In this document: piece after piece, positions 455 to 63,178 of the stretch
How the letters are laid out: every line of letters starts with the position of its first letter
Numbering within the stretch: position 1 is the first letter of the stretch
From: Dehalococcoidales bacterium
GTDB taxonomy: Bacteria > Chloroflexota > Dehalococcoidia > Dehalococcoidales > UBA5627
Direction: 5' to 3'
DNA length: 64,000 nt
Assembly: GCA_028707255.1 (NCBI GenBank)
Contig: JAQTUQ010000007.1
Location: forward strand, 209-64,208
Notes under the pieces: model-generated
Databases searched by the model: none
Told to the model about the DNA's origin: nothing
The model's input: the letters and a program-made list of their open reading frames with translations, nothing else
Position numbers and translations under genes: made by a program

Positions 455-527
455 GTTCGACAGGCTCACCCCGATTTCATCGGGATTTGGTCAATCTATT
501 TCCGCTCATCCTGAACTTGTCGAAGGA
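455..527. repeat. intergenic repeat modules (TTCGACAGGCTCACC / CCCCGATTTCATCGGG hairpin / CTTGTCGAAGGA)
   Basis: The same short modules recur at 33.49, 35.32-35.65, 55.34-55.50 and 63.09-63.18 kb. Confidence 0.6.
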
Positions 528-628
528 TAATGGTGGAAACAACTTCCGACCATAATTGATACATATTTCCGTCATCATACGTATAATTTATATTTAAGTC
601 TACCCTTAAAGGGCATTGTTCTGCAAGG

Positions 629-1396
629 TTATTCCCGGTTCATGCCATAAATTAGCCTCAAACCGATAAGGGTGAGATCGGGATTGACTTCATCGATTAC
701 TCCGGTTTCTCTGGCTATCAGACCGGCGAAACCGCCGGTAGCCACTACCTTTACCTTAACACCGATTTCCTTTTGCATACGCTGCACCATGCTTTCCACC
801 AGCCCCACATAACCGTAAACCACACCCGATTTCATGGCGTCAATGGTATTGGTGCCGATTACCTTGTTTGGCGGCGCCAGTTCGATTCTGGGTAACATAG
901 CAGCACGTTGAAAGAGAGCCTCGGCAGAGGAAAGGATTCCCGGAGCAATCGCCCCACCGAGATAATCGCCGTTCTTGGAAACGATTTCAAAAGTGGTTGC
1001 CGTTCCCATGTCCACTATTATCACCGGACCGCTGTAGAGATGATGAGCGGCAACGGCATCGACGATGCGGTCGGCGCCGACTTCTTTCGGATTATCCATA
1101 CGGATGCGCATGCCCGTTTTTACACCGGAAGCCACAATCAGCGGTGAAATATCGAAATAACGCTTTATCATGTCATCGAAAATGGAAGTCAGCGGAGGCA
1201 CGACGCTGCATAATGCCACTTCTTTGATATCCGATACTTCCAGCCCGCGACTCTTCAGGATACTTATAAGCAGAACAGCGTTTTCGTCAGCCGTGCGGTG
1301 AATCAAGGTGGTCATTTGAAAGGTAGTCTTCTTTTGCTCCCCGTCGAATACACCGACAGTAGTCTCCGTGTTCCCGATATCTATTGCTAATAACAT
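629..1396 (-). CDS. coaX: type III pantothenate kinase
   Basis: 255 aa. N-terminal MLLAIDIGNTETTVGVF and ...VDMGTATTF... match the CoaX/Baf family. Adjacent to coaBC. Confidence 0.9.
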   Translation of the reverse strand: MLLAIDIGNTETTVGVFDGEQKKTTFQMTTLIHRTADENAVLLISILKSRGLEVSDIKEVALCSVVPPLTSIFDDMIKRYFDISPLIVASGVKTGMRIRMDNPKEVGADRIVDAVAAHHLYSGPVIIVDMGTATTFEIVSKNGDYLGGAIAPGILSSAEALFQRAAMLPRIELAPPNKVIGTNTIDAMKSGVVYGYVGLVESMVQRMQKEIGVKVKVVATGGFAGLIARETGVIDEVNPDLTLIGLRLIYGMNRE

Positions 1397-1437
1397 ATAT
1401 TTTCGCCTCTGTAGAAGATAATTCCCTCTGTATTACT

Positions 1438-2976
1438 TCAACTTTCTTTCAATTTTTTGATTGCCTTCGGAATCACAGGCAGCAAATCGCCTGCCAGCAT
1501 TCCTGTATCGCCAAGTTCGGATTTTACTATTTCCGCGGCCTGCGCATGCAACCAGACACCCAGGCAGGCGGCGTTGAAATTATCCAACCCTTGCGCGCTT
1601 AACCCTGCGATGACTCCTGCCAGCACATCGCCGGTGCCGGCAGAGGCAAGCCCCGGATTGGCAAACGGTGAAACACGGCACCTGCCGTCAGCGGAAGCTA
1701 TAACCGTATAAGCTCCCTTAAGGACAACTGTTTTCCCCCATTTCCGGGCAAAAAGCATAGCTGTATCAACCCTGTTTGCCTGGATTTCTTCGACAGGAAT
1801 CCCCGTCAGCCTGGACATCTCACCAGGATGCGGCGTGAGAATAGCATCCATCATCAACTTCTGCCACCAATCGGTCGTTTTTGCCAGAACATTGAGGGCA
1901 TCGGCATCGATAACCAGCGGCATTATCGGCTTGTTACCAAACAGGACACCTCTTGTAAAATTAACGGTCATATCATGTTGCCCCAAGCCACACCCGATAA
2001 GCAACGTAGTATATTCATTTAAAGAAGACAATACGATAAAGGAAGCTTCGCCGGATACAACACATTTTACCGATTCCGAAAGCGGCAGATAGGTGACCTC
2101 ATTCAGTTTACCTGCCAGCACTGGTTGCAGATTGACCGGAATCGCCAGTGTAACCAGCCCGGCGCCGGCTCTCATGGCGCCGCTGCAAGACAGATATGCC
2201 GCCCCGCTATAATTTACGGAACCGGCAGCCGCCAGCACCTTGCCGAAAGTGCCCTTGTTGGCATTCAGCGGACGCTGCGGCAGTGCATTTTTAGCCCATT
2301 TTTCGGTTAAAAGCTCCAGTTTCACATCTCCTGCCATGTATTCGGGAATACCGATATCGACTACTATAATTGTTCCCGCTTTTTCCGGCCCTTTGCCGAT
2401 GAACAACCCCGTTTTGGGGAATCCGAGAGTTATGGTATAATCAGCGCTCAGGCATAAAGGGTCGCAACACCCGCTGTCGGCATCCATTCCCGATGGCAGA
2501 TCAATGGCTACTATCTTGAAGCCGGAATAATGCTTCTTTGCTTCGGAGACCTTGTGCAACGCTTCTTTATAAATACCCCAAATGGGGCGGTTGCTGCCGG
2601 TGCCGAACAGCGCATCTACGACGATATCCGCCGTACGCAGCAGATTACCCAGTTCATCGAGGTTTTTATATACCAGAATCCGGCTCTGGTTTACAAGTTT
2701 CAGGTTGGGGTCGTTTTCAGTCCTCTCTCCAAACAGGAACAGGTGTACTTTAGCTTCCCATCCGTCCAGATAGCGGGTGCAAACCAGCCCGTCGCCGCCG
2801 TTATTGCCCGGTCCGGCAAGAACAATGATATTCTTATTGAACGCCTCGCCCAGTATTTTACGGACCTCTACAGCCGCCTGCTTACCGGCGTTCTCCATCA
2901 GGGTTTCCATGGTGATACCCGACTTTTCGCATTCCTGCTCTGCCTGTTTCATAGAAACTGAAGTTAAGATTTTCAT
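1438..2976 (-). CDS. nnr: bifunctional NAD(P)H-hydrate epimerase / ADP-dependent dehydratase
   Basis: 512 aa. YjeF_N-like N-terminus (LAGPGNNGGDGLV) and carbohydrate-kinase C-terminus (GTGDVLAG). Confidence 0.9.
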   Translation of the reverse strand: MKILTSVSMKQAEQECEKSGITMETLMENAGKQAAVEVRKILGEAFNKNIIVLAGPGNNGGDGLVCTRYLDGWEAKVHLFLFGERTENDPNLKLVNQSRILVYKNLDELGNLLRTADIVVDALFGTGSNRPIWGIYKEALHKVSEAKKHYSGFKIVAIDLPSGMDADSGCCDPLCLSADYTITLGFPKTGLFIGKGPEKAGTIIVVDIGIPEYMAGDVKLELLTEKWAKNALPQRPLNANKGTFGKVLAAAGSVNYSGAAYLSCSGAMRAGAGLVTLAIPVNLQPVLAGKLNEVTYLPLSESVKCVVSGEASFIVLSSLNEYTTLLIGCGLGQHDMTVNFTRGVLFGNKPIMPLVIDADALNVLAKTTDWWQKLMMDAILTPHPGEMSRLTGIPVEEIQANRVDTAMLFARKWGKTVVLKGAYTVIASADGRCRVSPFANPGLASAGTGDVLAGVIAGLSAQGLDNFNAACLGVWLHAQAAEIVKSELGDTGMLAGDLLPVIPKAIKKLKES

Positions 2977-3044
2977 ATTTAATAATCCTATGGATAGAGT
3001 TTATCAATACCGCAATCGGGGGTCAATAGTAAAGATGCAAAAAT

Positions 3045-3115
3045 TGTCATTGCACATTCCCTATTTATCGGGATGAAGCAATCTCTACCGAATAGACTTA
3101 CTGTCAAAGACAGCG
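3045..3115. repeat. partial copy of repeat module A/C (TGTCATTGC...GGGATGAAGCAATCTCTACCGAATAGAC)
   Basis: Shares the GAAGCAATCTCTACCGAATAGAC core with the units at 25.79, 33.43, 34.12, 53.93 and 55.82 kb. Confidence 0.7.
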
Positions 3116-3153
3116 ATTAAATCCAATCGGGAATATCATCACTATGACATTCT

Positions 3154-3753: not shown

Positions 3754-3871
3754 TGCACTTCTCCTTTTTGATAATTAAAATGTCGTTTTAGTTAGTCATG
3801 ACATATATAGTCATGAGAGGGATTTATCCCTCATGTCTTCAGGATGACTGAATAGAGACTATTATTATTTG

Positions 3872-4182
3872 CCATTACGAGAAGTCCCTCTACAATGTCT
3901 TTCTGAGCGCAGCGAAGAATCTCATATAAATTAAAAGGGACGAACGATTAAGCAATCCCTACCGGTTATTTTAACACTGCCATGCGGTCTATTTGGGAAA
4001 GGATTGCTTCGTCCGCCTGCAGCTCCCTCGCAAAGACATTCTGTAAATAAAGGCTGGAAGAGGCACTCCGCGATTCTCTCACTTTGAAAAAGGGAGATTA
4101 AGAGGGATTTTACAGTTTACCGGAATCGATAGAGCAATCAGCAGCAAATCTCCCTCACTCCCTCTTTTCCAAAGAGGGAAAG
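3872..4182. repeat. composite cluster of palindromic repeat modules
   Basis: 3881-4038 is the reverse complement of 25766-25923 (158 nt, high identity by eye). Also contains the hairpin CCCTCTTTtccaAAGAGGG. Confidence 0.8.
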
Positions 4183-4232
4183 TACCGCAAACGTTTACTT
4201 ATGCGCTATCCCAAATCCAAATTAATAATTTA

Positions 4233-4728: not shown

Positions 4729-5502
4729 TTAGATTAGCATTTGCTTGCCTTCGAAAGCCATACTTATAGATATTTCCAGCTCTTCGGCAATTTCCTGTAA
4801 TTCTTTACGGATATTTTCTTCCAGCATATGATTCATATGCACCGTAACTACATCCGGTATATATCCTCTGGTATTCAGATGACAGACCAGTTCTTCTTTT
4901 AACAGGCAGGGACAGAGGTGACCTTTTTCACTACAGAACTTCGAGTATTCGTTAGAGGCGGTTACCTCCGTTATCAGCAATTTGGTAGAAACTTTTTCCC
5001 AGCAAGCGGATAATCCCGGCCCTGTATCCCCGCTATAAAAGAAGGACTTGCCTCCCTTTCCCGAAATACGGTAACCAACGGCAGGTACCGAATGCGGTAC
5101 GGGGACAGGAATAATCGAATAACCCTCGACCTGAAACTTGAGATAGGGTTTTACCGGGCACAACCTGACCGTTACCTTGCCGTTGCCGTTCACCTTGAGG
5201 AAATCAGGATAGAGGCTGCCACCCAGCAAGTTGCCGCCAATCGCCTCTGCCGTGCTTTCGAGGCAGTAGATATCTATCGTTGTGCCGTTTAATGAGCGGT
5301 TCATGGCTAAAAGAGGCAGGTCTTTTACATGGTCGTAGTGCCGGTGTGTTATCAACACAGCCTTGAGACCCAACTGCTCGGAAAGCGTCAGGCTGGATGT
5401 CAGCCCTCCGGCATCCAGAGCCAGCACGTCATCCACCAGCAAGCCGGAGAGCCTGGTATCTCTGGTCTCGGTATTATGCGCGCCTAAAAATCTTATTTTC
5501 AC
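4729..5502 (-). CDS. MBL-fold metallo-hydrolase (resembles class II cyclic-nucleotide phosphodiesterases)
   Basis: 257 aa. LALDAGG...VLITHRHYDHVKDLP motif. Confidence 0.75.
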   Translation of the reverse strand: MKIRFLGAHNTETRDTRLSGLLVDDVLALDAGGLTSSLTLSEQLGLKAVLITHRHYDHVKDLPLLAMNRSLNGTTIDIYCLESTAEAIGGNLLGGSLYPDFLKVNGNGKVTVRLCPVKPYLKFQVEGYSIIPVPVPHSVPAVGYRISGKGGKSFFYSGDTGPGLSACWEKVSTKLLITEVTASNEYSKFCSEKGHLCPCLLKEELVCHLNTRGYIPDVVTVHMNHMLEENIRKELQEIAEELEISISMAFEGKQMLI

Positions 5503-6222: not shown

Positions 6223-7170
6223 TTAAATAACTCGCAACTTGCGCAGAAGCAGAAGGACGCCTAAAATAATGGTCAGCATCAGCCCGAAAACTATAAAAAC
6301 GGCATAGTCTGACTCGGCAAACGGCATATCGATATTCATGCCGTATAAACTGCCAACCACGGTTACAGGCAGCATAACCGTAGCAATAATCGTAAGTATT
6401 CTGATGGTTTCGTTAGTGCGATTGGTTGCCATGGAATCATGAGTATAGTTCAGACCTTCGATGATTTCCTTGTATTCATCCAGCCCGTCCCAGATTCTGT
6501 CGAGGTGGTCGACCATATCGCCGAAATAGACCGACATATCTATGTTTATAAAACGGTGGATTCGAGGCTCGAGCCGTCCGACAACCGCCCGCATCGGCCA
6601 GATTATACGGCGAAAGGCAATCACATCCCGGCGCAGACGGGATATCTCTCGAATAATCTGCCCCCTGCGCTCAGCAAGAATATTATCCTCAACGTCTTCG
6701 ATTCCGTCGCTGACCTTATTAAGTATCGGCTGGCAGTAATCGACAAGGCGGTCGAGTATGCGATACAGCAGAAAACCCGGCCCCTGCCCCAGGTACTCTT
6801 CACGCGATTCCTCATCGAGTTCGCATTCCCTGAAAAGTTTCACCAGCGGTTTTAAAACACCTTTATGTATCGTAATCAGGTAATCCTGCCCGATGAAAAC
6901 CGATATCTGGCTGGAGATGAGAACCTTTTCTTCTTTGCTGTAGATGGGGAAGTGGAAAACGATAAACAGGTAATCTTTATATTCGTCAATCTTGGGTCGC
7001 TGGCGGCGGCTTAAGGTATCGTCGAGGTCGAGCGGATGGAAATGATAATTTTCTGCCAGATAATCGATTTCACTTTGACCCGGAGGAGCGATATCTATCC
7101 AGGTCATACCCTTCCAGTCCAGTGTATCCAAATTCAATTTTTCTTCATTGACTTTCTGAACTTCTGCCAT
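6223..7170 (-). CDS. corA: magnesium/cobalt transporter CorA
   Basis: 315 aa with the YGMN motif (LYGMNIDMPF) before the last TM helix. Confidence 0.9.
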   Translation of the reverse strand: MAEVQKVNEEKLNLDTLDWKGMTWIDIAPPGQSEIDYLAENYHFHPLDLDDTLSRRQRPKIDEYKDYLFIVFHFPIYSKEEKVLISSQISVFIGQDYLITIHKGVLKPLVKLFRECELDEESREEYLGQGPGFLLYRILDRLVDYCQPILNKVSDGIEDVEDNILAERRGQIIREISRLRRDVIAFRRIIWPMRAVVGRLEPRIHRFINIDMSVYFGDMVDHLDRIWDGLDEYKEIIEGLNYTHDSMATNRTNETIRILTIIATVMLPVTVVGSLYGMNIDMPFAESDYAVFIVFGLMLTIILGVLLLLRKLRVI

Positions 7171-7482
7171 AAAGCCGTTTCCTTCGTAAGATAAACCTGA
7201 TTATTCTATCACATACTTTGCCGTTTAGCACCTGAATTGCTATAATAATGCTACAGAATTTAGTACTATATTATATTTTACTCCAATTTATTATTAAAAA
7301 TGCAACATCTTCCTTTAAGAAACCGCATAGTAATCAATATCAAAAAAGCGCTCGGAATGAACGTAATCCTGTGCAACAGCTGCAAGTGGAACTGGCGGAA
7401 TGCCTGTCATAACAGGGAACGCCCCAAAGCTGTTTATTGCCGGGAATACGAGAAGAAGTAGCGTTTGTTATCTTGTTTGTAT

Positions 7483-7511
7483 TTGACAACAGACCTGCAG
7501 GACAATACAAT
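7483..7511 (+). promoter_or_regulatory. sigma70-type promoter for the tRNA
   Basis: TTGACA (7483-7488), 17-nt spacer, TACAAT (7506-7511), about 30 nt upstream of the tRNA 5' end. Confidence 0.55.
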
Positions 7512-7541
7512 ATTTCAGGTAACAGAATAAGTTTTAAGCGT

Positions 7542-7613
7542 GGCAGCGTAGCTCAGAGGTAGAGCAGGGGACTCATAAGCCCTTGGTCACTGGTTCAATT
7601 CCAGTCGCTGCTA
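7542..7613 (+). tRNA. tRNA with CAU anticodon (elongator Met or lysidine-dependent Ile2); CCA not encoded
   Basis: Hand-folded cloverleaf. Acceptor GGCAGCG/CGCTGCT (G1-U72), D arm GCTC-AGAGGTA-GAGC, anticodon loop CTCATAA, T arm ACTGG-TTCAATT-CCAGT, discriminator A. Confidence 0.85.
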
Positions 7614-7695
7614 CTTTTTTATTCCTCTCAGAAACCGTGTCCTCAAATAACCAAAGAACTCTGACTGATTAATAACAGAATAAATATTTATGTAA

Positions 7696-8028
7696 TTAAG
7701 GTAAATTACAGAAAGCCAGTATCACCAATACTAACCACACAGCTGCAAAAAACATCGGGACAATATAAGTATGGTCAGCGTTGCTCTTATCTACTGTTCC
7801 TTTGGGATGCCAAAATAAGTTCCACATACTACCAAACATTTTCAATATCAAGAATAGAATATTACCCATGTCCATTTGTTCTTTTTCAATATCATATATT
7901 TTTTTATAGGGTGGTTTATCTCCAGCTTCAAGCGGTAGAGCTAATTCTTTTTCTTCCAAGGTACTGATATATAATTTGATCTTACAGATTATCCCAGTAT
8001 TTAGATAGTTTGTTGCAGCAAAAAGCAT
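7696..8028 (-). CDS. hypothetical membrane protein (possibly the 3' part of a frameshifted gene)
   Basis: 110-aa ORF in an AT-rich region. Its frame stays open upstream to 8175 and reads a TM-like segment HYIGIYWGYTIAGFVLS. Confidence 0.4.
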   Translation of the reverse strand: MLFAATNYLNTGIICKIKLYISTLEEKELALPLEAGDKPPYKKIYDIEKEQMDMGNILFLILKMFGSMWNLFWHPKGTVDKSNADHTYIVPMFFAAVWLVLVILAFCNLP

Positions 8029-8219
8029 AGATAAAACGAATCCTGCAATTGTATAGCCCCAATATATACCAATATAGTGCCCATTCCGGTTATCAGAGCC
8101 CCAAAAGCGGCAAGTAGGAAAGCTGTTGCCACAAGAAAAAAGTTTAACCTTTGAAATAGAAGTTTTACATTTCGATCAAGAAGGTCAATTGCTTTTTCAT
8201 AAGCCGTTTCATATTTCAC
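8001..8219 (-). CDS. hypothetical membrane protein (possibly the 5' part of a frameshifted gene)
   Basis: 72-aa ORF that overlaps 7696..8028 by 28 nt in another frame. Confidence 0.4.
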   Translation of the reverse strand: MKYETAYEKAIDLLDRNVKLLFQRLNFFLVATAFLLAAFGALITGMGTILVYIGAIQLQDSFYLCFLLQQTI

Positions 8220-8360
8220 TTTAAACCCCCCTTAATGAAGACCTCATATATTAGCGAATTTTACTCCGTGATTTGACCGATATCAATGGTTTTATCCCAA
8301 TAAGTACATAAACTATGCTATAATTTCCTACAAATTCCTTTCATTGGAGGAATAACTGTT

Positions 8361-9026
8361 ATGACAGCAGATGAATTCCTGAATATATTCTCAGCAGTTC
8401 TCGAACACGATACAGGTGCCTTAAAATGGGGCAATCCTGAACCGTGGATTCACGCTGAACTTTTTGCAGAATTCAATAGGCAATCTAATAAGACTCACTT
8501 AATACCCTTTGATAGCGAAGTTCCTTATGTCACACGTTTCCCTGTTTTGCCTCGTAAAGAAAATCACAAACACTGGAAGTATGCCGACCTTTGCCTATTA
8601 TCTGATACTGGAAATGATTGGTTTTGGTTTGAATTTAAAGTACGTCCAGTGGGGACTCCAAATAGAGATATCATAGCTTCTAAAGGAGCGAGAGATCAAT
8701 TTCGTAAAGACATAATAGCTTTACTAGGTTTCGAAGCCCAAGGCACAGCTGAACTTTGGGAAAATGAGCTAAATGTAAAATCTTACTGGACAGATAAATA
8801 CCTAAAACCACTTAAAGATAATGTTGGTAGTGGAATACATCATTTTTATTCAATTTTTTTGCAAATAGGCGGGGAACTTAATAAACAAATATGGGACATT
8901 GACGCATTAAAAAAGGAACTCAGTAACTGGTGTATTACACGAGGTGGATATGGTGATGAAACCCAGTGTATTAATTTATATAATGTAAATTTAGACGGTT
9001 ACTGTTTGGTTCTGGCTTATTGGTAA
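8361..9026 (+). CDS. hypothetical protein, possible PD-(D/E)xK nuclease fold
   Basis: 221 aa with RBS GGAGGA upstream. HAELFAEF ... YADLCLL ... WFWFEFKV gives an E / D / ExK arrangement. Confidence 0.6.
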   Translation: MTADEFLNIFSAVLEHDTGALKWGNPEPWIHAELFAEFNRQSNKTHLIPFDSEVPYVTRFPVLPRKENHKHWKYADLCLLSDTGNDWFWFEFKVRPVGTPNRDIIASKGARDQFRKDIIALLGFEAQGTAELWENELNVKSYWTDKYLKPLKDNVGSGIHHFYSIFLQIGGELNKQIWDIDALKKELSNWCITRGGYGDETQCINLYNVNLDGYCLVLAYW

Positions 9027-9075
9027 TTTTTATATTTAGACAGATAATATTTGAGGCTGTAACTCATTATATCAC

Positions 9076-9114
9076 GGGCACCAGTTCAATCCCAGTCGCT
9101 GCTACTTTTTTATT
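9076..9114 (+). repeat. tRNA 3'-end copy 1 (att-like)
   Basis: GTTCAATCCCAGTCGCTGCTACTTTTTTATT differs from tRNA 7592-7622 by 1 mismatch over 31 nt. Confidence 0.85.
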
Positions 9115-9550
9115 ATTTATTAGAACGTATCAATACGACCGGGATTTTTGAATTGCGTACTACTCGTTCCGCAACACTACCAATAAACCAATGTGCCGGC
9201 CCTGTACGTCCATGAGTTGACATGGCAATTACGTCGACTTTATTTTGTTCTGCCATTTTGAGAATTACATTTGCTGCAGATCCTTCTGCCAGTATTGCTG
9301 AAACCTTAAACCCCTCAGACTTCAACTGGGATTCTATTTCAAACATATATTTTTTACCGGCGGCTTCCTCCTCTGCAATCGTTTCTGCGGCAATACCGGG
9401 ATCTGAAAAAGCGAACTCCACAGCAGGATTAGCGACGACGTTTAATATGATTATCTCTGCTCCTTCAGAATATGCCAATGCTTTGGCATGAGGTAATACC
9501 TCTTCAGCTGTTTTAGACCCGTCAAGTGGTACCAGTATTTTTTTATACAT
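9113..9550 (-). CDS. universal stress protein (UspA family)
   Basis: 145 aa. MYKKILVPLDGS...STHGRTG...GSVAERVVRNSKIPVVLIR. Confidence 0.85.
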   Translation of the reverse strand: MYKKILVPLDGSKTAEEVLPHAKALAYSEGAEIIILNVVANPAVEFAFSDPGIAAETIAEEEAAGKKYMFEIESQLKSEGFKVSAILAEGSAANVILKMAEQNKVDVIAMSTHGRTGPAHWFIGSVAERVVRNSKIPVVLIRSNK

Positions 9551-9838
9551 AGATTTTCTCCTTTATTATTCTAGTTCATAATCAAAAAATAAATTCAAAT
9601 TAAATCCTGTACTGATCTACTAGTATTATACACCTAAAACATCACTACATTTACATCTTGGCCTTTGATTTTCTTAGGACTATCATCGCACGAAAATCGA
9701 ACAAGAAGAAGAACAGTTCCAATGTCTAAGACAGGCAAGAAATCGGCGTGATATAATAGTTATAATCAATTCTTCATCTTAAGTAGCAGCAATCGCAATA
9801 AAATAACTGGAAATATATCTAAAGGAGCGGTTAAAAGT

Positions 9839-10177
9839 ATGTTCACAAAAAGAATGTTAATATGCGTTGTTACAGGTGCTCTACTTGGAATCGTCTGTAT
9901 CGTGGGTGCACAGTTAAGGTCGGGATTTGAACATGAAGCTTCTTATCTTTTTTCTTTCTGGTTCAACCGTTTACTCCTGGGAATCGTCATCGGACTGGCA
10001 GCGTTTAAGCTTAGTACAATACAGGCAGTCGGGCGTGGAGCGCTTCTGGGTTTACTGGTTTCGTTCGCTTTTTACAGCTCCACCGGTTTTCAAGATGTTA
10101 TCGGATTCATTGCGGGGATAATATACGGCGTTATCATTGAGTACGCAGCGCTGAAGCTGGATAAGAAAACTGCATAA
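9839..10177 (+). CDS. hypothetical membrane protein
   Basis: 112 aa, about 4 TM segments, RBS AAGGAG upstream. Confidence 0.6.
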   Translation: MFTKRMLICVVTGALLGIVCIVGAQLRSGFEHEASYLFSFWFNRLLLGIVIGLAAFKLSTIQAVGRGALLGLLVSFAFYSSTGFQDVIGFIAGIIYGVIIEYAALKLDKKTA

Positions 10178-10322
10178 GGAAATTGCATCATTTTTACGAA
10201 TGGATAAACGGTCTTTTTAACAATTACTTCCAATATTTTAAGGTTGATATTGCCAGTAAATATAACAGAAAAAGGAAAGGAAGCAATTTAAGTCACTGCC
10301 ACTTTTTTCGGGAGGTATACGA

Positions 10323-10532
10323 ATGGAAAATGATGTTTCGATTTCCCTCGAACTGGCAAACAGGTTGTGCCAAGCTTATACAGAACAACATAAAGTCAGA
10401 CTGTTTAGTCAATGCTGGGGTTGTTTGAAATTTTCTAAAAACAACCCAGAAAAAATGTGCTTTTATAATCCTCCAAATAATGATAGCTGCCGATTTGTCA
10501 ACAAGTTATACAAAAGCCAAAAGGGAAAATAG
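10323..10532 (+). CDS. small Cys-containing hypothetical protein
   Basis: 69 aa. RBS GGGAGG 7 nt upstream. Preferred over the overlapping ORF 10183..10428. Confidence 0.45.
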   Translation: MENDVSISLELANRLCQAYTEQHKVRLFSQCWGCLKFSKNNPEKMCFYNPPNNDSCRFVNKLYKSQKGK

Positions 10533-10540
10533 CTAAGGCT

Positions 10541-11169: not shown

Positions 11170-11212
11170 CTGGTCTAATCATAAATAGTTCAAATGTATG
11201 GGGAAATTATAT

Positions 11213-25759: not shown

Positions 25760-26045
25760 TAAAAATGTCTTTGCGAGGATGCCACAGGCGGACGAAGCAA
25801 TCTCTCCCGAATAGACCACACGGCAATATTAAAATAATCTGTAGAGATTGCTTAATCGTTCGTCCCTCCCTGATTTGTATGAGATTCTTCGCTGCGCTCA
25901 GAAAGACATTGTAGAGGGACTCCATGCAATGGCAGTGTGTAATTTGTCATTCTGGAGTCCATAAGGGATGGCCGAAGAATCCTGGAGGCGGGGAGAAGCA
26001 GCACAAAGGTATCTACAGCATAAACCTTCTCCGCCAGTCCTCTCA
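25760..26045. repeat. composite cluster of palindromic repeat modules
   Basis: 25766-25923 is the reverse complement of 3881-4038. Further partial modules extend to about 26040. Confidence 0.8.
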
Positions 26046-27918: not shown

Positions 27919-28202
27919 AATTCCTCCCGCTACCGATAGATAATCGTCGACCGGAAGTTATTCCCGCCGTCAACGCCTTATAATATTACCAATAATACCC
28001 GCTTTCAACCAAAATGACATTCTCCCCGACGATTGCGTCGGGGAATTAAGCCCTAAAAGAGATTAAAATATGATATGAAATAGATAAAATTGTTGTATAA
28101 TCAGAGTATACAGCAAAATTTAAAACAGAAATAATATTAAGTATTAAAAATATTCGTTATTCCGGTTCGCGGCGCTGTTTACTTTAAAAACAGGAGTATG
28201 AA

Positions 28203-34096: not shown

Positions 34097-34216
34097 TGTC
34101 ATTGCGAATCCCACTTGTCGGGATGAAGCAATCTTTCTCGAATAGACTGTATGGTAGAATTAAAAATATCGGTAGAGATTGCCGCGCTTTCCCTTCGGGA
34201 AAACTCGCAATGACTG
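34097..34216. repeat. module A unit (about 120-nt rod-like palindrome)
   Basis: TGTCATTGCGA...GAAGCAATCTTTC...GGTAGAGATTGCC...TCGCAATGAC. Reverse complement of 40771-40889. Confidence 0.85.
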
Positions 34217-35321: not shown

Positions 35322-35660
35322 TTCTTCGACAAGCTCAGCAATTGTCATTCTGAGGCGAAGACGAAGAATCCAAGACTTATTGAATGGCATTCAGATACTT
35401 CGCTGCGCTCAGTATGACGATAAGCTTTAAAACCTCACCCCCGTGCCCCCTCTCCGCACACAGAGAGGGGCATGATAGCAGTTACCCCCTTCTCTGATTT
35501 CGGAGAAGGGGGACAGGGGGATGAGGTTTTTTCACTCGTGTCCTTCGACGATCTCAGGATGCTCGAATATTATTAAAGCCGTTTCATAACATGTTGAGTT
35601 CCGTAATTCGGAACGAAATCTCGACCTGTCGGGATCGAACCATAACGGTTTAATATATTA
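35322..35660. repeat. composite repeat cluster including a 100-nt cloverleaf-like nested palindrome
   Basis: Module B at 35342-35420, nested palindrome at 35429-35529, TTCGAC/CTCAGGATG modules at 35540-35650. Confidence 0.8.
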
Positions 35661-40770: not shown

Positions 40771-40889
40771 TGTCATTGCGAGTTTTCCCGAAGGGAAGGC
40801 GCGGCAATCTCTACCGATTGTTTTAATGACGCCATACAGTCTATTCGGTAAAGATTGCTTCATCCGCCTGCGGCGTCTTCGCAATGACA
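40771..40889. repeat. module A unit, inverted relative to 34097-34216
   Basis: TGTCATTGCGAGTTTTCCCGAAGGGAAGGCGCGGCAATCTCTACCGAT...AAGATTGCTTCATCC...CGCAATGACA. Confidence 0.85.
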
Positions 40890-52963: not shown

Positions 52964-53681
52964 CCGGAACCCCCGTTAACTGCAGATAGGCATTTTCCAG
53001 CGTACCGTATTTTTGTTCCAGGGCTTCTATGCTGTCATATCCGAGCAGTTTGCCATGGTCGATAATGGCAACGTGTTTGCATATCTGGGCGACTTCGCTC
53101 AATTGATGGGAAGCAAAAAAGACTACCTTGTCTTTTCCGGCTTCCGTAATAATCTGGCGGAATTCGATCACCGCTCTCGGGTCTAATCCCAGCGCAGGTT
53201 CGTCGAGGATTAAAATCGGCGGGTCGTGCAACAGGGTTTGCGCCAATGCCAGCCGCTGTTTCATACCACGGGAGAATTTTTCTATTTTAACGTTAAGCCA
53301 TTGCTCCAGGCTTACCAGCCCGATGACCTCACCGATACGGTCGGTTAAATGACTGCCTCTCATACCGCGCAGCCTGCCGAAATAGTTGAGAGTTTCTCTC
53401 GGAGTTAAGAAGCCGTAGAATTCGGGGGTTTCGATAATAGTACCTATTTGCGAAAGCGCTTTTTCCTTTTGAGAGGAAACTTCGAAACCCTTGATATATG
53501 CCTTGCCTGAGGTTGCGCGGATGAGGCCGCAGAGGATTTTAAGGGTGGTGCTTTTACCGGCACCGTTAGGCCCTAAAAACCCGACGTTTTCATTTCCCTC
53601 TATCTTAAGAGAGACATTATCCAGCGCTAGGAAGTTATTATAATACTTGGTAAGGTTTTCGATAACGATCGGCTCGTTCAT
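52956..53681 (-). CDS. ABC transporter ATP-binding protein
   Basis: 241 aa. GPNGAGKST, FSRGMKQRLALAQ, ILILDEP. Confidence 0.9.
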   Translation of the reverse strand: MNEPIVIENLTKYYNNFLALDNVSLKIEGNENVGFLGPNGAGKSTTLKILCGLIRATSGKAYIKGFEVSSQKEKALSQIGTIIETPEFYGFLTPRETLNYFGRLRGMRGSHLTDRIGEVIGLVSLEQWLNVKIEKFSRGMKQRLALAQTLLHDPPILILDEPALGLDPRAVIEFRQIITEAGKDKVVFFASHQLSEVAQICKHVAIIDHGKLLGYDSIEALEQKYGTLENAYLQLTGVPGE

Positions 53682-53789
53682 AAAATAATCTCTATTTTAT
53701 TTCCCGTATCAAAACGACAACTATATGATTGTACCATAAAACTCAATGATGTTGAATAGCATACGGCGGCGAATATCGAATGGAATTTA

Positions 53790-54195
53790 AATTCTTCGCT
53801 ACACTCAAGATGACGATTCCCTCTTAGCGTCATTCCGAGTCCCCCGATTTATCGGGGCGAAGCAATCACTACAAAACCTCTTAATTACCCCACCCCGCCA
53901 CCCAAAATGTCGTTGCGAGGACGCCGCAGGCGGACGAAGCAATCTTTACCGAATAGACCGTATGGCAGTATTAAAATAACCGGTAGAGATTGCCGCGTCG
54001 CTCGTTTAACACTCGCTCCTCGCAAAGACAGTGCAGAGAGTCCCGCCACAACTGTCATTCTGAGGCGAAGCCGAAGAATCCAAGACTTATCGAATGGTAT
54101 TTAGTCCCTTCACTTCGTTCAGGGTGACAGTAAAAAAACCGCTTATCTTTGAGCCCGTCGAAGGGTCTGCGAGCGGAGAGGGGTTGCGGCGAGTT
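53790..54195. repeat. composite repeat array (modules B-half, C, A, B, tail)
   Basis: The module A unit at 53908-54030 has a 14-bp outer stem TGTCGTTGCGAGGA/TCCTCGCAAAGACA. Collinear with 55500-55975. Confidence 0.85.
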
Positions 54196-54204
54196 TTAAA
54201 ATTA

Positions 54205-54678
54205 TTAATCAAGAAAATCTATTTGTGCGGGCGGCTTATCTTTAATCTCCACATCGATACCGGCTTCCTTGAAGAGGTCGATAAATGAACTGTCGTTGTA
54301 CTTGCCAAAACTGACGAAACGCTTGATTTTGGCATTCGCCAGCATCTTGGCGCACAGGATGCAGGGTGTATGCGTGCAGTAAATTGTGCATCCCTCGATG
54401 CTGACGCCGTGCAAAGCCGCCTGAATGATGGCATTCTGCTCGGCGTGAATGGCACGGCAGATTTCGTGCCGTTCGCCCGAGGGTATATTCATCTCGTTCC
54501 TGAGACACCCCAGTTCGAGGCAATCCTTGCAGCCGGCAGCGGCGCCGTTATAACCGGTGGAAAGAATGTGCTTGTTTTTTACCGCCACCGCTCCCACATG
54601 GTGACGCAGGCAGGTGGAGCGCTCGGCGACCACGGCGGCAATCTTTAAAAAATACTCGTCGATATCCGGTCTTATCAT
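54205..54678 (-). CDS. dCMP (deoxycytidylate) deaminase
   Basis: 157 aa. HAEQNAI and PCILCAKM zinc motifs. Confidence 0.9.
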
Positions 54679-55226
54679 CTTTTCCCCCGTATAAATAAAA
54701 GCGCTTGCTCCACCTCTTTTTGCAAATCGTCCAGCGAGCCTTCGTTGATTATCGTAAAATCCGCCATGGCAATCGGCCCACCCTTGTTGATTTTTACTAT
54801 CTCCGCTTCATCGCGGCCGGCGGCTTCGATAAAAGTCAGCGGACGGATTTTTCTGTGTTCCAGCCTGCGGTAACGGGTTTGGGGCGAGCAGTAAACGGCA
54901 ACCACGAAAAAGTCGTCGTCGAAGTGCTTTTTCAGGATAAGGTATTCTTCCCACGAGTAGAGTCCGTCTATAATCACCGGTGACGATTTGCGGGCTTCTT
55001 CGATACGCGGCAGGTTAAGGATGGCATAAGCCGCCATGCCGTGCTCCTTGCGGAAACCCTCCCGTACGCTGCGCTCGTTCTCCTCGTTCAAAACCAGCCC
55101 GCGCCTTTTGATTTCTTCGTCCGTTATATCACCGAAACGTATCCTGGTAAAACCGTCATCGGTAAAGAAGCGGGCGGCTTCGGATTTGCCCGCGCCTGCC
55201 ATACCAACCAGCGCCGCTACAATCAT
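54675..55226 (-). CDS. P-loop nucleotide kinase-like protein (dephospho-CoA kinase/dNMP kinase-like)
   Basis: 183 aa. [11 protein letters not shown] Walker A. Stop overlaps the deaminase start by 4 nt. Confidence 0.65.
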
Positions 55227-55289
55227 ATCAATCTACCTCGAGGTCTAATTATATGAAAACGGCGGGTTTATATCAACAAAACGGATTAT

Positions 55290-55980
55290 AACCCCGCTTT
55301 TTTAGACCTCATCCCCCAGCCTCCCTCTCCGCAAGCATCCTTCGACAAGCTCAGGATGCGCGGATATTGTTAGAGCCGTTCGTGGATAAGGTTAGTAAAA
55401 AGCCGTTCGTGGAGCCTGTCCTGAGGTTCTCGAAGGAAGCCTGTCGAACCATAACGGCGGCGAATTTTAAACCGGATTTCCGTTAAAATCCTTCGACGCA
55501 CTCAGGACGAACGGAAATCTTTACCGAATAGACCGTATGGCGTAGTTATAGTTATCGGTAGAGATTGCCGCGTCGCTCGCTTAACGCTCACTCCTCGCAA
55601 AGACAGAGCAGAGAGACCCTCTACATTGTCATTCTGAGGCGCAGCCGAAGAATCCAGGAATTATCGAATGGCATTCAGTTCCTTCACTTCGTTCAGGATG
55701 ACAATTCCTTTTTAGCATCATTGCGAGTCCCCGATTTGTCGGGATGAAGAAATCCCTGCAATGCAACATAATTACCCCGCCCCGCCACCCAAACTGTCTT
55801 TGCGAGGACGCTGCAGGCGGACGAAGCAATCTTTACCGAATAGACCGTATGGCGTAATTATAGTTATCGCTAGAGATTGCCGCGTCGCTTCGCTCCTCGC
55901 AAAGACAGTTTGGAGATACATCTGAGCCTGTCGAAGGGTCTGCAATCGGAGAAGGGGGCTGGGGGTGAGGTGTAAAAAGC
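55290..55980. repeat. composite repeat array (modules A, B, C, A, tail, inside a split palindrome)
   Basis: Module A units at about 55500-55610 and 55795-55910, module B at 55625-55702. Same orientation as 53790-54195. Confidence 0.85.
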
Positions 55981-56022
55981 GACACAAATAAGCACAAATC
56001 AGTCCTTCCGGTCAACTGTATT

Positions 56023-56050
56023 TTGACTCTAATCACATATGTATTATAAA
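56023..56050 (+). promoter_or_regulatory. candidate promoter giving a near-leaderless transcript
   Basis: TTGACT (56023-56028), 16-nt spacer, TATAAA (56045-56050). The ATG at 56059 has no SD sequence. Confidence 0.35.
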
Positions 56051-56058
56051 ATAGCCAG

Positions 56059-59000
56059 ATGGCAATAAAAAGGCTGATTGTATGCTTGATGGCGGCGCTG
56101 ACTGCGTTCGTTATTATCCCGTACGCAAACGGGAGCATTGCCGAAAGCGCAACGAATATCGCCGGATGGCAACAGGCAAACATTCCGGCGCCGGGGGCTG
56201 AACACGGCTGGCTGCTGGCAGCCGGTTCCGATATAACCTGCCTTGCCGCGGATAGCAATGGCATTATCTATGCCGGGGTAAGCGGAATGCCGTCGAATCT
56301 CTATAAATCGCTCGATGACGGGCAAAGCTGGCAGGCAATCGCAAGCGGCAGCGACACTATTGCAGATATGGTCGTTACGGCGGACGATACGCTTTATTAC
56401 GCCACGTCTTACAGCATTTATAAATCCGTCAACGATGTAAATACCGTTGTTGCCTCTTTATCAGGCAGTTTAACAGACCCGGATACCGTTATTACCTCCA
56501 TCGACGTTTCTCTGTATAACGGCAGCTATGCCATACTTGTCGGAACCAAAAATAAAATTGGCGGGCAATTCGGCGGCGTATATGTAATTTATAGCGATGG
56601 GCTTATGCAGTGGCAGAATTTGGGGCTGGCGGGCTGTGACATATATTCGGTGGGCTTTTCACCGCGCTTTCCGGAGGATAATTTCATAGTCGCACTGGCA
56701 AGCGATGAAACGCATACTTTCGTTACCTGGAAAGAGGGCGGCGGTGCATGGGGCGGAACCATCGGGAATGCGGTGTTCAGAGAAGGCGGAACGGGAAACC
56801 CGGTCGTGCTAACGGAAACCGCCAAAATCGCCTTCCCCGAAGACTATCGTTCAGATGTCTATAGCGACAACTGCGTTTTATATGCAGCTTTGAATACCGG
56901 TACAGGTAACGGTGATGTGTATGCCGTTTACGGCAGGCAGAACCCCGGGCAGTCGATTGCCGAAGACCTCGATGTCGCCGCAGCGTACGGACAGAACGGC
57001 ATCGATATCAGCGGACTGGCTGTCTGCGGCAGTATCGGCGACATCCGCATCATGGCAGGAGCATCCTCAAACGGCAATATATACATCAGTCCGGACGGCG
57101 GAAACAGCTGGCAGCAAAACAGGAAATCACCTTCCGGCGAGCAAGTAACGGCGGTACTGATGTCTGCCGATTATAAAAACGACGGCAAAGCCTATTCTGC
57201 TACCACAGGAAGCGAAAGCGCATTCTCACTAAGCCATGATTACGGAATAAACTGGAACCAGTGCGGGCTGATAGATACGACGCTGGATGTAATTATCGGT
57301 GCGGCTGTTTCCCCCATGTATGATAATGACGAAACAGTATTTCTGCTGAGTTGGGGGAACGGGCAGAGCGTCTGGCGCACCACCGACGGCTGCGCCAGCT
57401 GGCAAAGAGTGTTTTATGGCGCTGCGGATAGCTTCATCAACATCGATAAAATCGCTCTTTCTCCGCAGTACGGAAACGCAAGCCATACGCTCTATTTTTG
57501 CGGCAGCGACAACGGCAATGCGACACTCTGGAAATCCGATGATAAAGGGCAGAGCTTTTTCGCCAGGAGTATGCCGTTTGCGGCCGACTGCTGGGAAATA
57601 ATCGACGATTCCTCTTTTTATATCGCCGGCTTCGACGGCGCTAACGCCCTGCTTTACCGCACTGTCGACAGCGGTGCACATTATAAATATAAATCCATCG
57701 TCGGCAACCAATCGCTGACATCCATCGCGCTCTCCCCGAACTATTCTGCCGACAAGACCGTGCTGGCAGGCAACTGCAACGGCGGCGTTTATCTGTCCAC
57801 TAACGAAGGGATTTCATTTACGCCGCTGGGGAATGCATCTTCTTTGCTAAAGGTCAGTGTCAGCGTGGCTTTCGATGCCGATTATGAGGTTAACAATACT
57901 GTTTACGCCGCCGGCGATATGGCGAATAACGGCATTTACCGCTTCGTAATCGGGGAGACTACAGCATGGGAAGCTATCGACGGCACACTGCCGCCAGGGG
58001 CAATGACAGGCAACCTGAAAGTATCGCAATCGGGTGTATTGTACGGCGTCAATTATCAGCAGGTTGGGGCGGGGGGCGGTATCGAGCGCAGCATCGACCC
58101 GTCATCGGCTCATTTCTTCGAAACTTTTACCGGAGGGCTTGGTGAAGGCGCCACGCTTACCGATTTGTGGCTGAGCGGTAATACGCTATGGTCTATCGAC
58201 ACGACGCATAACTTGCTGCTCTTTTTCAAAGATACCCTTTCGCAGCAGGTCGGTCTCAGCTCACCTTCAGACAATTCGATAGTAAAGGGTATGGTTTCCG
58301 AAAGCAACATCAGGAATGTTTTACTGGATTGGGAAGCGCTGGAGGGCGCCGGCAGTTACCGCTGGCAAATAAGCGACAGTAGAAGTTTTTCCTCATCATC
58401 GATTATTGCGGAAGGTACCACTACTGCCGGTTCCGTCAAATTGAACTCGCTGGAGACAGGCAATGTTTATTACTGGCGCATCCGCGCTGTTACCCCGCTG
58501 CTTAGCCCCTGGTCGGAAATATGGTCTTTTACGCCGCAGGCAATAATAGAACCGGATGCCCCCGTACTGCTATCTCCGGCTGCCGGGGCTGTAAACGTCC
58601 CCGTAAATACGATGTTCCAGTGGACGGCAGTCTACGGCGCGGATAGCTACGAGTTGGAAATATCGACGCAATACGATTTTGCCAGTCCCGTCATACAGCT
58701 GGCGGGCGCAACCGCCATACCGCTAAATGCCTGGCAGAATCCGGATGACTTTACGCATAACACCACCTATTACTGGCGCGTGCGTGCCATTAATGCGGAT
58801 ACCGTCGGCAGTTGGAGCGGGGCGGGGGTATTTGCTACCATAGCGGCTGACCTAACGCAAACGTCGACAAGCTCCAGCGTTATGCAAACCCAGTCGACGC
58901 AAACGTTAGCGTCCTTCACCACCGTCGAAAAAACGACCACCGTGATATCCACCGGGTTACCGACGATAACCATTATTCAAACACAGGGAACGTCCGCGCC

Positions 59001-61519: not shown

Positions 61520-62387
61520 GGCGCCTGCCAAGATTAACCTGACGCTGGAGGTGCTCGCAAAGCGCCAGGACGGCTATCACGAAATCAGCAGCATTATACA
61601 GGCAATCGACCTGTGCGATGTCCTGTCCTTTGATGAGGGCAGCAGCATCGAGATTGTTTGCGATAATCCCGACTGGCAGGCAGAGAAAAGCCTCATCCCG
61701 CGGACAGTCGAATTGCTTCTGGAAAGCTCCGCCTGTTCCAAAGGCGTCAAGATTAGTTTATTGAAGAGAATTCCGCTTCTCTCCGGTTTGGCGGGCGATT
61801 CCAGCGCCGCCGCCGCTACACTCAAAGGATTGAATATCTTCTGGGGGCTGGGATATACGCCGGGGCAACTGGCAGACTTTGCCGCAAAACTCGGCTCGGA
61901 CGTCTCATTTTTCTTATCGGGGGGCACGGCTTTGGTACAGGGGCGAGGGGAAATTGTCAGCCCGCTGCCTTCCCTGCCGGAAATGTGGGTGGTTTTATTG
62001 ATGCCGGATTTAGAGCGGACTATCGGCAAAACGGGTAAAATGTATTCCAGCCTGGAGCAATCTTTTTTCAGCACAGGAGAAAAGACGGATAACCTGGTGA
62101 GTAAACTGACAAGAAACGGGGAAATCGATAATTCTGCCCTTTTCAACGTATTCGAGCATGTGGCATATAACATCTACGACGGGCTCGATAAGTGCCGCAA
62201 TGATTTTCTATCAGCCGGCGCCGCCGGTGTTCATCTTGCCGGTTCGGGACCGACACTGTTTACTATGGTCAAAAATAAAAACGATGCACTTGAGATTTGC
62301 GAGCGGTTAAAAGAAAAGGGTTATAACGCCTGCGCTGTAAAAACTCTCGGTCACAGCGATTTATTAAGTACCGGTACGGCGGCATAA
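61506..62387 (+). CDS. ispE: 4-diphosphocytidyl-2-C-methyl-D-erythritol kinase
   Basis: APAKINLTLEV...GLAGDSSAAAA...GSGPTLF. Confidence 0.9.
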   Translation: MLTVEAPAKINLTLEVLAKRQDGYHEISSIIQAIDLCDVLSFDEGSSIEIVCDNPDWQAEKSLIPRTVELLLESSACSKGVKISLLKRIPLLSGLAGDSSAAAATLKGLNIFWGLGYTPGQLADFAAKLGSDVSFFLSGGTALVQGRGEIVSPLPSLPEMWVVLLMPDLERTIGKTGKMYSSLEQSFFSTGEKTDNLVSKLTRNGEIDNSALFNVFEHVAYNIYDGLDKCRNDFLSAGAAGVHLAGSGPTLFTMVKNKNDALEICERLKEKGYNACAVKTLGHSDLLSTGTAA

Positions 62388-62388
62388 A

Positions 62389-63021
62389 ATGATAGTGCAA
62401 TCGATTCTGGCTGTATTAATCGCTTATCTCCTGGGGGCAGTTCCATTTGCCTATATCGCCGGGCGTCTGAAGAAGGGAATGGATATCCGTAAAGCCGGCG
62501 GGGGAAATGTAGGCGCCACCAACACCCTGCGCGAGGTCGGCACCGGGGCGGGGCTGCTGGTTTTGGCTGCCGACATCCTGAAAGGCACGCTGGCAATCCT
62601 TATCGCTCAGTGGCTGGGCGTTTCACTCATAATCGTATTCATAGCCGGACTGGCGGCGGTTATCGGCCATAACTGGTCGCTGTTTATAAAATTCGGCGGC
62701 GGCAAGGGGGGAGCCACCGTTCTCGGCGTTTTCTTCGCCCTCGTCCCCGTTGCTGCCGCTATTGCCTTCGGGATTATGGTACTGGCAGCCTTCCTCACCA
62801 GCAACCTCAGGCTTTCGATGATGGCCGGTTTTATCGCCCTGCCCTTCCTGCTGTGGGGTTTCGGGGAAGCGGGAAACATAATCGCTTATTCGGTCGGCTT
62901 GCCGCTACTGACCGGACTGCGCATCCTGCCTTCCATCATCAGGGGCGCTAAAGACCCGCAGGCACGCAAGAACTTTATCGTGGATAGAGATTATACCCCC
63001 TGGCAGAAAAAGAAGAAATAG
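62389..63021 (+). CDS. plsY: glycerol-3-phosphate acyltransferase PlsY
   Basis: 210 aa. YLLGAVPFAYI...GGGNVGATN...HNWSLFIKFGGGKG. Confidence 0.9.
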   Translation: MIVQSILAVLIAYLLGAVPFAYIAGRLKKGMDIRKAGGGNVGATNTLREVGTGAGLLVLAADILKGTLAILIAQWLGVSLIIVFIAGLAAVIGHNWSLFIKFGGGKGGATVLGVFFALVPVAAAIAFGIMVLAAFLTSNLRLSMMAGFIALPFLLWGFGEAGNIIAYSVGLPLLTGLRILPSIIRGAKDPQARKNFIVDRDYTPWQKKKK

Positions 63022-63085
63022 AAATGACTTAGTATATATATATTATCATTGTCGGTTATTGCGAATAATAATTTGACGCCGCCAT

Positions 63086-63178
63086 GGATTCGACAAGCTC
63101 ACCACGAGCGGCTTTAGTTTTCGTTTTCATAAAGAATAAAAAATCCGCTTGCCCTTGCTGAGCGTGTCGAAGGGTCTA
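63086..63178. repeat. repeat modules (TTCGACAAGCTCACC ... GAGCGTGTCGAAGGGTC)
   Basis: Same module family as 455-527, 35323 and 55340. Confidence 0.6.

Follow-up and report, generated by a model that had tools for sequence, protein, structure and literature searches.

Do the nested palindromes scattered between the genes of a Dehalococcoidales genome belong to a known family of repeats, and is there an enzyme that acts on them? The 64,000-nucleotide stretch examined here (contig JAQTUQ010000007.1; hereafter the window) carries such palindromes at 12 intergenic loci, which together cover about 2.9 kb or 4.6% of its length. An earlier note, made from the sequence alone, had divided them into four modules, A to D, and knew of no named family, function or mobilising enzyme for them, a view that no longer holds. 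Modules A, B and C are largely built from one hairpin, here called the arm, whose anatomy fits two described groups of repeats, the CGTC/TGTC-tagged repetitive extragenic palindromes (REPs; PMC3733652) and the NTS/Ssn-related motifs of Neisseria (PMC11893778). The same arms flank genes for homologues of the GIY-YIG nuclease SsnA in close relatives and in other phyla. We consider it likely that the repeats are the Dehalococcoidales branch of the CGTC/TGTC-tagged REP superfamily, or Ssn-related motifs, and serve as sites of a GIY-YIG nuclease, with modules A and B as gene-less derivatives.

A shared hairpin arm in the intergenic repeats

Repeated DNA was detected at all 12 loci named in the earlier note by a repeat search, self-blastn and direct reading of the sequence. 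The core of module A (GAAGCAATCYYTNYCSAATAGAC) is present in seven copies in the window compared to 0.00 expected, and arms under a strict definition (GTC, a 5-bp stem, GA..., the complementary stem with at most one mismatch, and C) number 19, compared to a mean of about 0.9 and a maximum of 4 in 30 shuffles. At 28.03 kb a palindrome is indeed present, but it is a lone dRS3-like one whose membership in the family is weak. Every repeat lies between open reading frames (ORFs) and both orientations occur, as had been claimed. Of 42 gaps that measure 100 bp or more, 12 contain repeats; the flanking genes run in one direction at 8 of these, converge at 2 and diverge at 2 (the gap at 33.3 kb being entered by hand). 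The reported proximity to stop codons was seen for several elements at distances of 3-17 nt (33283/33286, 3154/3148, 34289/34275, 25721/25738). The description of a modular nested-palindrome family that gives rise to spurious ORFs was likewise supported.

The arm, which occurs as singlets, dimers and hybrids, opens with a (T/C)GTC tag. After it come the first 5-nt strand of the stem, GAG, in some arms a small hairpin, GAA, the complementary second strand and C. Among the 19 strict arms the tag is TGTC in 15, CGTC in 3 and AGTC in 1. Stems begin with AT, sometimes with TT or GT, and come in complementary variants (ATTGC/GCAAT, ATTCT/AGAAT, ATCCT/AGGAT, ATACT/AGTAT), to which the relatives add ATGCT/AGCAT and ATGTT/AACAT. 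Covariation is clearer between these arm subfamilies than inside the module A stems, which are too conserved to yield much signal (double changes in 4 pairs, as in 292 of 500 shuffles). The optional inner hairpin varies (CGCC-GCA-GGCG, TTCCC-GAA-GGGAA or CCCGA-TTTA-TCGGG); an arm's loop is either a GNA triloop or a nested hairpin 11-28 nt long. Simple arms can form tandem G.A pairs from GAG and GAA around a C[GNA]G triloop, the commonest loop type (20 of 83 environmental arms). Left arms of module B end in a CCA tail, and the tail of the other arms is CTC, CTT or CTG. When IMG/VR was searched for TTGCGAG-N8-30-GAAGCAATC, (T/C)GTCN preceded 71 of 143 matches, compared to about 2 by chance.

In modules A and B, two inverted arms flank a conserved spacer, and this layout with the tags outside is common to A, B and the A-arm/B-arm hybrids at 3.9 and 25.8 kb. 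In most copies, which are head-to-head dimers, the spacer is about 40 nt long, structured and conserved (81% mean column identity over 12 copies). Module C is a lone single arm. Module D has the same skeleton (CATCCT-GAG-CTTGTC-GA-AGGATG) with no clean tag. Hairpin repeats of another kind, modules E and F, cluster together with the arms. The modular organization proposed earlier was retained, but its four modules are largely one skeleton, and it had not set apart E (4064-4185, 33286-33394) and F (35430-35530). Similarly, the conserved order A-B-C-A does recur, but at two loci only, 53.8 and 55.5 kb. These are ~86% identical copies of one ~310-bp C-A-B composite, one of them in part tandemly duplicated with a period of 312, and the recurring order is thus explained by duplication of this composite.

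Module A folds as a 4-way junction (z -4.2 to -5.7) and does so equally well on either strand; over 12 copies, 88% of cells pair, compared to 37-51% when the partners are slid. Module F folds with -64.5 kcal/mol (z = -7.7). Pfam scans of 80 window ORFs, which are ordinary housekeeping genes by these scans, revealed no transposase, integrase, HUH or GIY-YIG domain, and tblastn of the window found no GIY-YIG homologue, in agreement with the reported absence of a cognate transposase from the 64 kb. A search of the whole window against Rfam at the gathering score returned only tRNA-Met, and even at E <= 10 there was no match in the largest cluster (53680-56060). Literature searches with the repeat sequence strings gave only irrelevant primer matches, and blastn of the C-A-B composite against plasmids yielded a single weak Calothrix match, which is uninformative.

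SsnA-like GIY-YIG genes between the arms

CGTC-tagged REPs were defined by Di Nocera, De Gregorio & Rocco in 2013 (PMC3733652). They carry a CGTC tag, often TGTC (or CCTC), a stem starting from AT and a CCA tail, with stems of 8-9 bp and loops of 4-5 nt, and most of them are head-to-head dimers with conserved 20-100-bp spacers that lie between unidirectional or convergent genes and have no dedicated transposase. Their members include dRS3 of Neisseria and RPE-4/-6 of Rickettsia, and their hosts span five phyla without Chloroflexi, which are listed for GTAG repeats only. The window repeats share the CGTC/TGTC tag, the AT stem, the head-to-head dimers with conserved spacers, the placement mainly between unidirectional or convergent genes, the lack of an associated transposase and, in the left arms of module B only, the CCA tail.

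The second group was described by Chenal et al. (2025, Nat Commun 16:2388; PMC11893778) and comprises the NTS, which is the longer form in Neisseria (CGTCATTCCCGCGMAVGCGGGAATCYRG), and the related 'Ssn-related motifs' (SRMs). These repeats lie on both sides of the gene for SsnA, a GIY-YIG nuclease of 94 aa with a single domain, and are recognised by it. The enzyme binds the hairpin in no other form than single-stranded DNA (ssDNA), cuts a few nucleotides upstream of it and is inactive on double-stranded DNA, RNA and the reverse strand. The three nucleotides on the 5' side of the palindrome are important for cleavage and the C immediately 3' of it for binding, while the hairpin loop is replaceable in vitro. 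Like NTS/SRM, the window arms have an unpaired xGTC 5' tag, an AT-starting stem, a C directly past the palindrome, and many intergenic copies and clusters. GTC before and C after the palindrome are found in 19 of 19 strict arms, the C being built into the search definition, and in nearly all arms of a looser list. Unlike NTS/SRM, the arms combine a 5-bp stem with tandem G.A pairs and often carry a variable hairpin nested in the loop position; head-to-head dimers around the structured spacer make up most copies, and the host belongs to the Chloroflexota.

The likeness extends to the gene, since 94-96-aa single-domain GIY-YIG genes with repeats on both sides are found together with these arms as well. 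Two related metagenome-assembled genomes (MAGs; loci of relatives are labelled L001 and so on) encode such proteins, one of 96 aa in L010 (4685-4975) and one of 95 aa on the minus strand of L011 (95-379). Both match PF01541 (E = 5e-16), they are 72% identical to each other, and the spacing of their residues Y9/Y20/E67 equals that of Y6/Y17/E64 in Nm SsnA. BLASTP of the L010 protein against an ORF of the Neisseria gonorrhoeae ssnA locus, which sits among seven NTS copies in 1 kb, gave 44% identity (E = 2e-30); a PDB sequence search with the GIY-YIG protein gave no match. Upstream of the L010 gene lies TGTCATTGCGAG..GAAGCAATC, and its stop codon is directly followed by a full module A. The L011 gene has TGTCTTTCTGAAG..GAAGAATCC upstream and TGTCATCCTGAAG..GAAGGATCC downstream. 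With respect to the gonococcal record itself (L158; NZ_CP119142.1, 1881319-1882376), we note that this 2.17-Mb chromosome is filed among plasmids and that the reading frame at the ssnA locus seems shifted relative to the nearest ATG.

The arm-gene-arm layout was observed in seven of seven independent contexts (L010/L150, L011, Nostoc, Planktothrix, Ignavibacteriaceae, Nitrospinae and Deltaproteobacteria), and the gene between the arms was always GIY-YIG, encoding proteins of 94-96 aa that are 62-77% identical outside the relatives. In Nitrospinae and Deltaproteobacteria the ORF lies precisely within a head-to-head arm pair, in Ignavibacteriaceae an arm adjoins the start codon, and in Nostoc and on a Planktothrix plasmid arms together with full B-type dimers flank the gene. 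A likely partner enzyme, which had been missing from the earlier description, is encoded beside these arms in close relatives and in four other phylum-level lineages. At least 8000 homologues were found at E <= 1e-5, and those listed include Nitrospinae, Deltaproteobacteria, Ignavibacteriaceae, Nostoc and Dehalococcoidales. Because most homologues are on short contigs, the repeats probably break assemblies. Searching plasmid records with tblastn also gave matches in four genera that are on the list of CGTC REP hosts, namely Azospirillum, Novosphingobium, Sinorhizobium and Sphingobium. Protein clade and arm type showed no covariation in an 8-protein identity matrix, whose L010 row is invalid; the L010 values given above come from other comparisons. 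On the Planktothrix agardhii plasmid (NZ_LR882964.1, 18450-19528; L159), the ssn-like gene and its B-type dimers lie between an MmeI-type restriction-modification gene and the DISARM gene drmA, which is a defence-island context.

By homology with NTS and SsnA of Neisseria, the arm would be the recognition site of a ~95-aa single-domain GIY-YIG nuclease encoded outside the window. A single-stranded arm is predicted to fold into a hairpin with an unpaired (T/C)GTC, an AT-starting stem, a tandem G.A interruption and an invariant C after it. The nuclease would bind only this folded single strand and nick it a few nucleotides 5' of the tag. Since A and B share the layout of the arm-gene-arm units minus the gene, they are most simply read as gene-less derivatives, comparable to REPINs or to transposable elements of the miniature inverted-repeat type (MITEs), with module C as a singleton arm. 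Nick-induced repair or copying between copies, along with recombination of inverted arms, may then produce gain, loss, in-place inversion, hybrid dimers and duplication of composite blocks. The anatomy of the arms, their association with the gene, the homology of the proteins and the polymorphisms between genomes are direct results; we infer that the Dehalococcoidales enzyme cuts the arms and that cutting drives their spread.

Several observations weigh against this interpretation. The window itself is without an ssn gene, its accessory 7-25 kb stretch is without hairpin repeats, no target-site signature could be defined, and modules D, E and F, which lack a clean tag, are unaccounted for by a model of nuclease sites. 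In addition, the gene could home into pre-existing hairpins rather than spread them. Compared to CGTC REPs, the arms have a 5-bp stem with G.A pairs instead of 8-9 bp and nested hairpins instead of 4-5-nt loops, and A arms end in CTY instead of CCA. Furthermore, the published SRM search pattern, HGTCWYN(0-2)YYVSBRHN(0-5)WNVSBRGN(0-2)RNCYNB (PMC11893778), has 0 matches in the window and likewise 0 across ~50 kb of GIY-YIG loci with flanking arms, compared to 4 matches within 1 kb at the Neisseria locus; used as test strings, NTS and NTSvar both match. Because they fail this pattern, the arms are a variant rather than a standard member of the known family, and the repeats are best filed as a divergent, nested-hairpin branch of hairpins already described. 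The clear match to a characterised REP family that, according to the earlier note, would remove the novelty was thus largely found, and most of the novelty is gone; what is left of it is that the arms escape the published pattern and that their phylum was unlisted.

Gain, loss and inversion between genomes and the competing explanations

A scan for the module A core with one genome per species showed that it is almost confined to Dehalococcoidales MAGs. A single 'Firmicutes' match (L008) was discarded, as it has no arm context and about one chance match is expected. At several of the relatives' loci, synteny with the window is retained (nucleotide identity 80-86%), but the repeats differ. The 156-bp block with module D is missing in L009, where the flanks align at the nucleotide level; L016 has ~25 bp in place of the whole 3754-4232 intergenic composite; and L006 and L009, though not the window, carry a dimer resembling module A between the genes for YjeF and CoaX. 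The 3.05-kb element occupies the same nucleotide-level site in the window, L009 and L016, with full-length copies in the latter two and a decayed, inverted copy between identical flanks in the window. Similarly, the 40.8-kb element has one orientation in the window and L003 and the opposite one in the same intergenic region of L001. Its orthologous copy in L003 is 98% identical, compared to ~86% for the adjoining gene, an excess of conservation over the flanks that was seen for this comparison only and is not general. Inverted termini are present, but no target-site duplication was found at the one clean nucleotide-level junction (415-570/L009) or around dimers, the other insertion junctions being too diverged to read.

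The unit of a TGTC arm, a 95-aa GIY-YIG ORF starting 0-40 nt from the arm, and a second, often inverted arm (~400-450 bp in all) might represent a minimal autonomous mobile element that moves or homes via site-specific ssDNA nicking and has the window's A/B dimers as gene-less derivatives. We regard this as a tentative idea that is rather doubtful at present. We know of no bacterial transposon for which movement by site-specific ssDNA nicking is established. If true, horizontal transfer would have carried the unit, with one and the same arm skeleton, into at least five phylum-level lineages, and the unit would also account for the spurious peptides of the 'VIASEAKQS / SLRGAKRRSNL' type that are ubiquitous in MAG annotations.

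The opposite possibility, that the host has domesticated the repeats as DNA sites that do not move (one example would be ssDNA restriction marks modulating recombination or uptake as in Neisseria), are inherited vertically and decay slowly, agrees with the nuclease-site interpretation on the identity of the sites and differs from it only on mobility. It draws on their distribution, as repeats fill 0 of 20 gaps in the low-GC stretch next to tRNA-Met (window 7171-25100) and 12 of the 22 outside it (counting gaps of 100 bp or more; Fisher test, p = 7e-5). Several sites are also orthologous across genomes that are 80-86% identical, and ssn genes stay in fixed contexts within lineages. This absence from the accessory stretch indicates that present mobility may be low, and the hairpin family looks like a long-standing resident of the core genome and not like an aggressive invader. 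However, near-identical copies at far-apart loci of the window (54 nt at 100%; 86-92% over 60-160 nt), lineage-specific insertions and the tandem duplication of the composite are at odds with complete immobility, which we consider unlikely.

Could the palindromes instead act as RNA, either as co-transcribed stem-loops (terminator, stabiliser or processing site) or as small RNAs under selection for RNA structure? Ten of the 12 loci lie between unidirectional or convergent genes, often near stop codons, the folds are very stable, and one T:G wobble is invariant in the inner stem. Yet the elements stand in both orientations relative to the flanking genes, those at 3.05 and 40.8 kb are inverted in place between genomes, and both strands fold equally well. 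G:T exceed A:C mismatches in module A by 30 to 15, but two columns dominate these counts and the strand test is not decisive. The arms contain no T-tracts and were not picked up by a terminator scan, and SsnA does not bind RNA (PMC11893778). Together with the lack of an Rfam match even at E <= 10, equal folding of the strands, mixed orientation and absence of T-tracts fit a DNA-level element, and an RNA role appears quite improbable. A hammerhead-like reading of CUGAG...GAAG was also dropped, as the core CUGANGA is unmet and Rfam is silent.

Inverted arm doublets around a spacer have the geometry of REPINs, and a RAYT (Y1 HUH transposase, IS200/IS605-like) with its gene elsewhere in the genome would then mobilise them. 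Like REPIN-RAYT systems and the BIMEs of Escherichia coli, the window repeats are short tagged hairpins arranged in inverted doublets and mosaic intergenic clusters, and they would share with them a single-copy partner nuclease gene amid its own repeats and an ssDNA hairpin as the recognised form. GTAG-tagged REPINs, some of them nested within module A spacers, do occur in related MAGs. Unlike the GTAG tag and HUH/Y1 fold of REPIN-RAYT, however, the elements studied here have a (T/C)GTC tag and GIY-YIG, which took the place of Y1 between the arms in all seven contexts. GTAG REPs did not exceed chance in the window, no Y1 domain was found in the 80 ORFs, and Di Nocera et al. did not find CGTC repeats on the flanks of any RAYT (PMC3733652). 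We therefore give this explanation very little weight. The GTAG-tagged REPINs (GTAGGGACGACC...GGGCATTGCCCGTCCCTAC) were seen in L004, L005, L007, L009, L011 (e.g. 5134-5203), L015 and L017, which means that two distinct tagged-hairpin systems coexist in the Dehalococcoidales clade.

Classical MITEs, which derive by deletion from a DDE insertion sequence and have inverted repeats at their ends and duplicated target sites, are the least probable explanation. The TGTC...GACA ends are inverted, beginning with TG and ending with CA, and presence varies between genomes, but no target-site duplication was visible at the one clean junction or around dimers, arms also occur as singletons and hybrid pairs, the interior is structured and conserved, and there is no DDE transposase in the 80 window ORFs or in the ~150 kb of related loci inspected around repeats. 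Intergenic mosaic elements of Neisseria and pneumococcal BOX elements are likewise modular intergenic composites with a recurring order, but their sequences are unrelated and the order in the window stems from duplication of the one composite.

Feature coordinates, neighbouring observations and significance

The extent and composition of the repeat loci are compiled below.

Table 1. Hairpin repeats of the window by locus (window coordinates).
Repeat span	Feature	Position	Strand	Remarks
455-540	156-bp insertion holding module D nested palindrome (455-540: GTTCGACAGGCTCA...CTGAACTTGTCGAAGG)	415..570	.	absent from L009 orthologous site; segment recurs at 33492 and 55328-55465
3045-3150	decayed module A, left arm TGTCATTGC..GAAGCAATC intact, right half degenerate	3045..3150	+	
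3834-4185	hybrid head-to-head dimer: B-type arm 3896-3923, A-type arm 4000-4038, module A spacer	3894..4040	-	
3834-4185	module E, G/C-poor double hairpin, no GTC tag	4064..4185	.	repeats at 33286-33394, L011 594-716 and 6204-6326
25738-25985	hybrid head-to-head dimer, A-type left arm, B-type right arm	25766..25908	+	
25738-25985	single B-like arm (TGTCATTCTGGAG..GAAGAATCC)	25945..25985	+	same arm flanks L011 GIY-YIG gene
28013-28050	lone dRS3-like palindrome (ATTCTCCCCGAC GATTGC GTCGGGGAAT), weak family membership	28013..28050	.	
33286-33560	composite: module E (reverse complement), module A left half + spacer 33400-33490, module D segment	33286..33543	.	33490-33543 100% complementary to 55398-55451
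34088-34275	complete module A, head-to-head arm heterodimer	34097..34215	+	4-way junction, -39.7 kcal/mol, z = -4.2
35330-35660	module B head-to-head dimer: left TGTC-ATTCT..AGAAT-CCA, right CGTC-ATACT..AGTAT-C	35343..35419	+	
35330-35660	module F, G/C-rich three-way hairpin (35430-35530), then D-like module (35536-35651)	35430..35651	.	module F copies also in L005, L007, L011, L001
40764-40890	complete module A	40771..40889	-	
53774-54190	composite: B-arm remnant 53790-53815 (minus), C 53828-53869, A 53908-54030, B 54053-54129, D'/F-like tail	53790..54190	+	
55299-55978	composite, first part: D-type nested palindromes 55328-55465, A right half fused to D arm 55490-55607	55299..55978	+	tandem period 312: 55507 vs 55819
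55299-55978	composite, remainder: B 55627-55703, C 55716-55758, A 55795-55907, D'/F-like tail	55299..55978	+	
63085-63180	module D-type dimer (TTCGACAAGCTCA...TGAGCGTGTCGAAGGGTC)	63085..63180	.	

Some further features were observed within or beside repeat clusters of the relatives. Reading of translations revealed toxin-antitoxin-like small gene pairs in L011 (5389-5790, HicB/HicA-like) and L003 (5400-5770 / 6240-7183), and one L003 insertion cuts the end of a module A terminus (...CTTCGCAAT|ATACGC). In the window, the 3' ~26 nt of tRNA-Met(CAT) (7542-7614) recur as six direct repeats at 9083, 10280, 10537, 11137, 13283 and 17115, inside the low-GC stretch (0.37-0.42 compared to 0.47-0.52 elsewhere). 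L016 is without window 7621-10624 altogether, and Pfam found no integrase in 7542-17140, a region in which small cassettes seem to have accumulated step by step at a tRNA attachment site. A 197-nt repeat pair (48306-48502 / 49988-50184) inside paralogous 5TMR-LYT membrane-protein genes (48117-48830, 49862-50491) is a gene duplication and lies outside the hairpin family. Finally, a near-perfect AT-rich palindrome (AATAATACTATCTAGATATATCTAGATAGTATTAT) at 23555-23600, between a PadR-family regulator gene and a GNAT gene, is possibly an operator.

Placing the repeats beside SsnA turns an unexplained repeat family into a testable pair of enzyme and site. In 2013 no partner nuclease of CGTC/TGTC repeats was known, and it was only in 2025 that SsnA became the first to be identified; the contexts described here extend the pairing of repeat and nuclease to Chloroflexota, Cyanobacteria, Nitrospinota and Ignavibacteria. 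Because the published pattern misses this arm variant, current surveys probably undercount the system. Recognising such hairpin repeats would improve the annotation of MAGs, in which they give rise to spurious ORFs. The nested-hairpin arms agree with the replaceable loop of SsnA substrates in vitro, and they may provide natural substrates for new Ssn specificities and for ssDNA tools.

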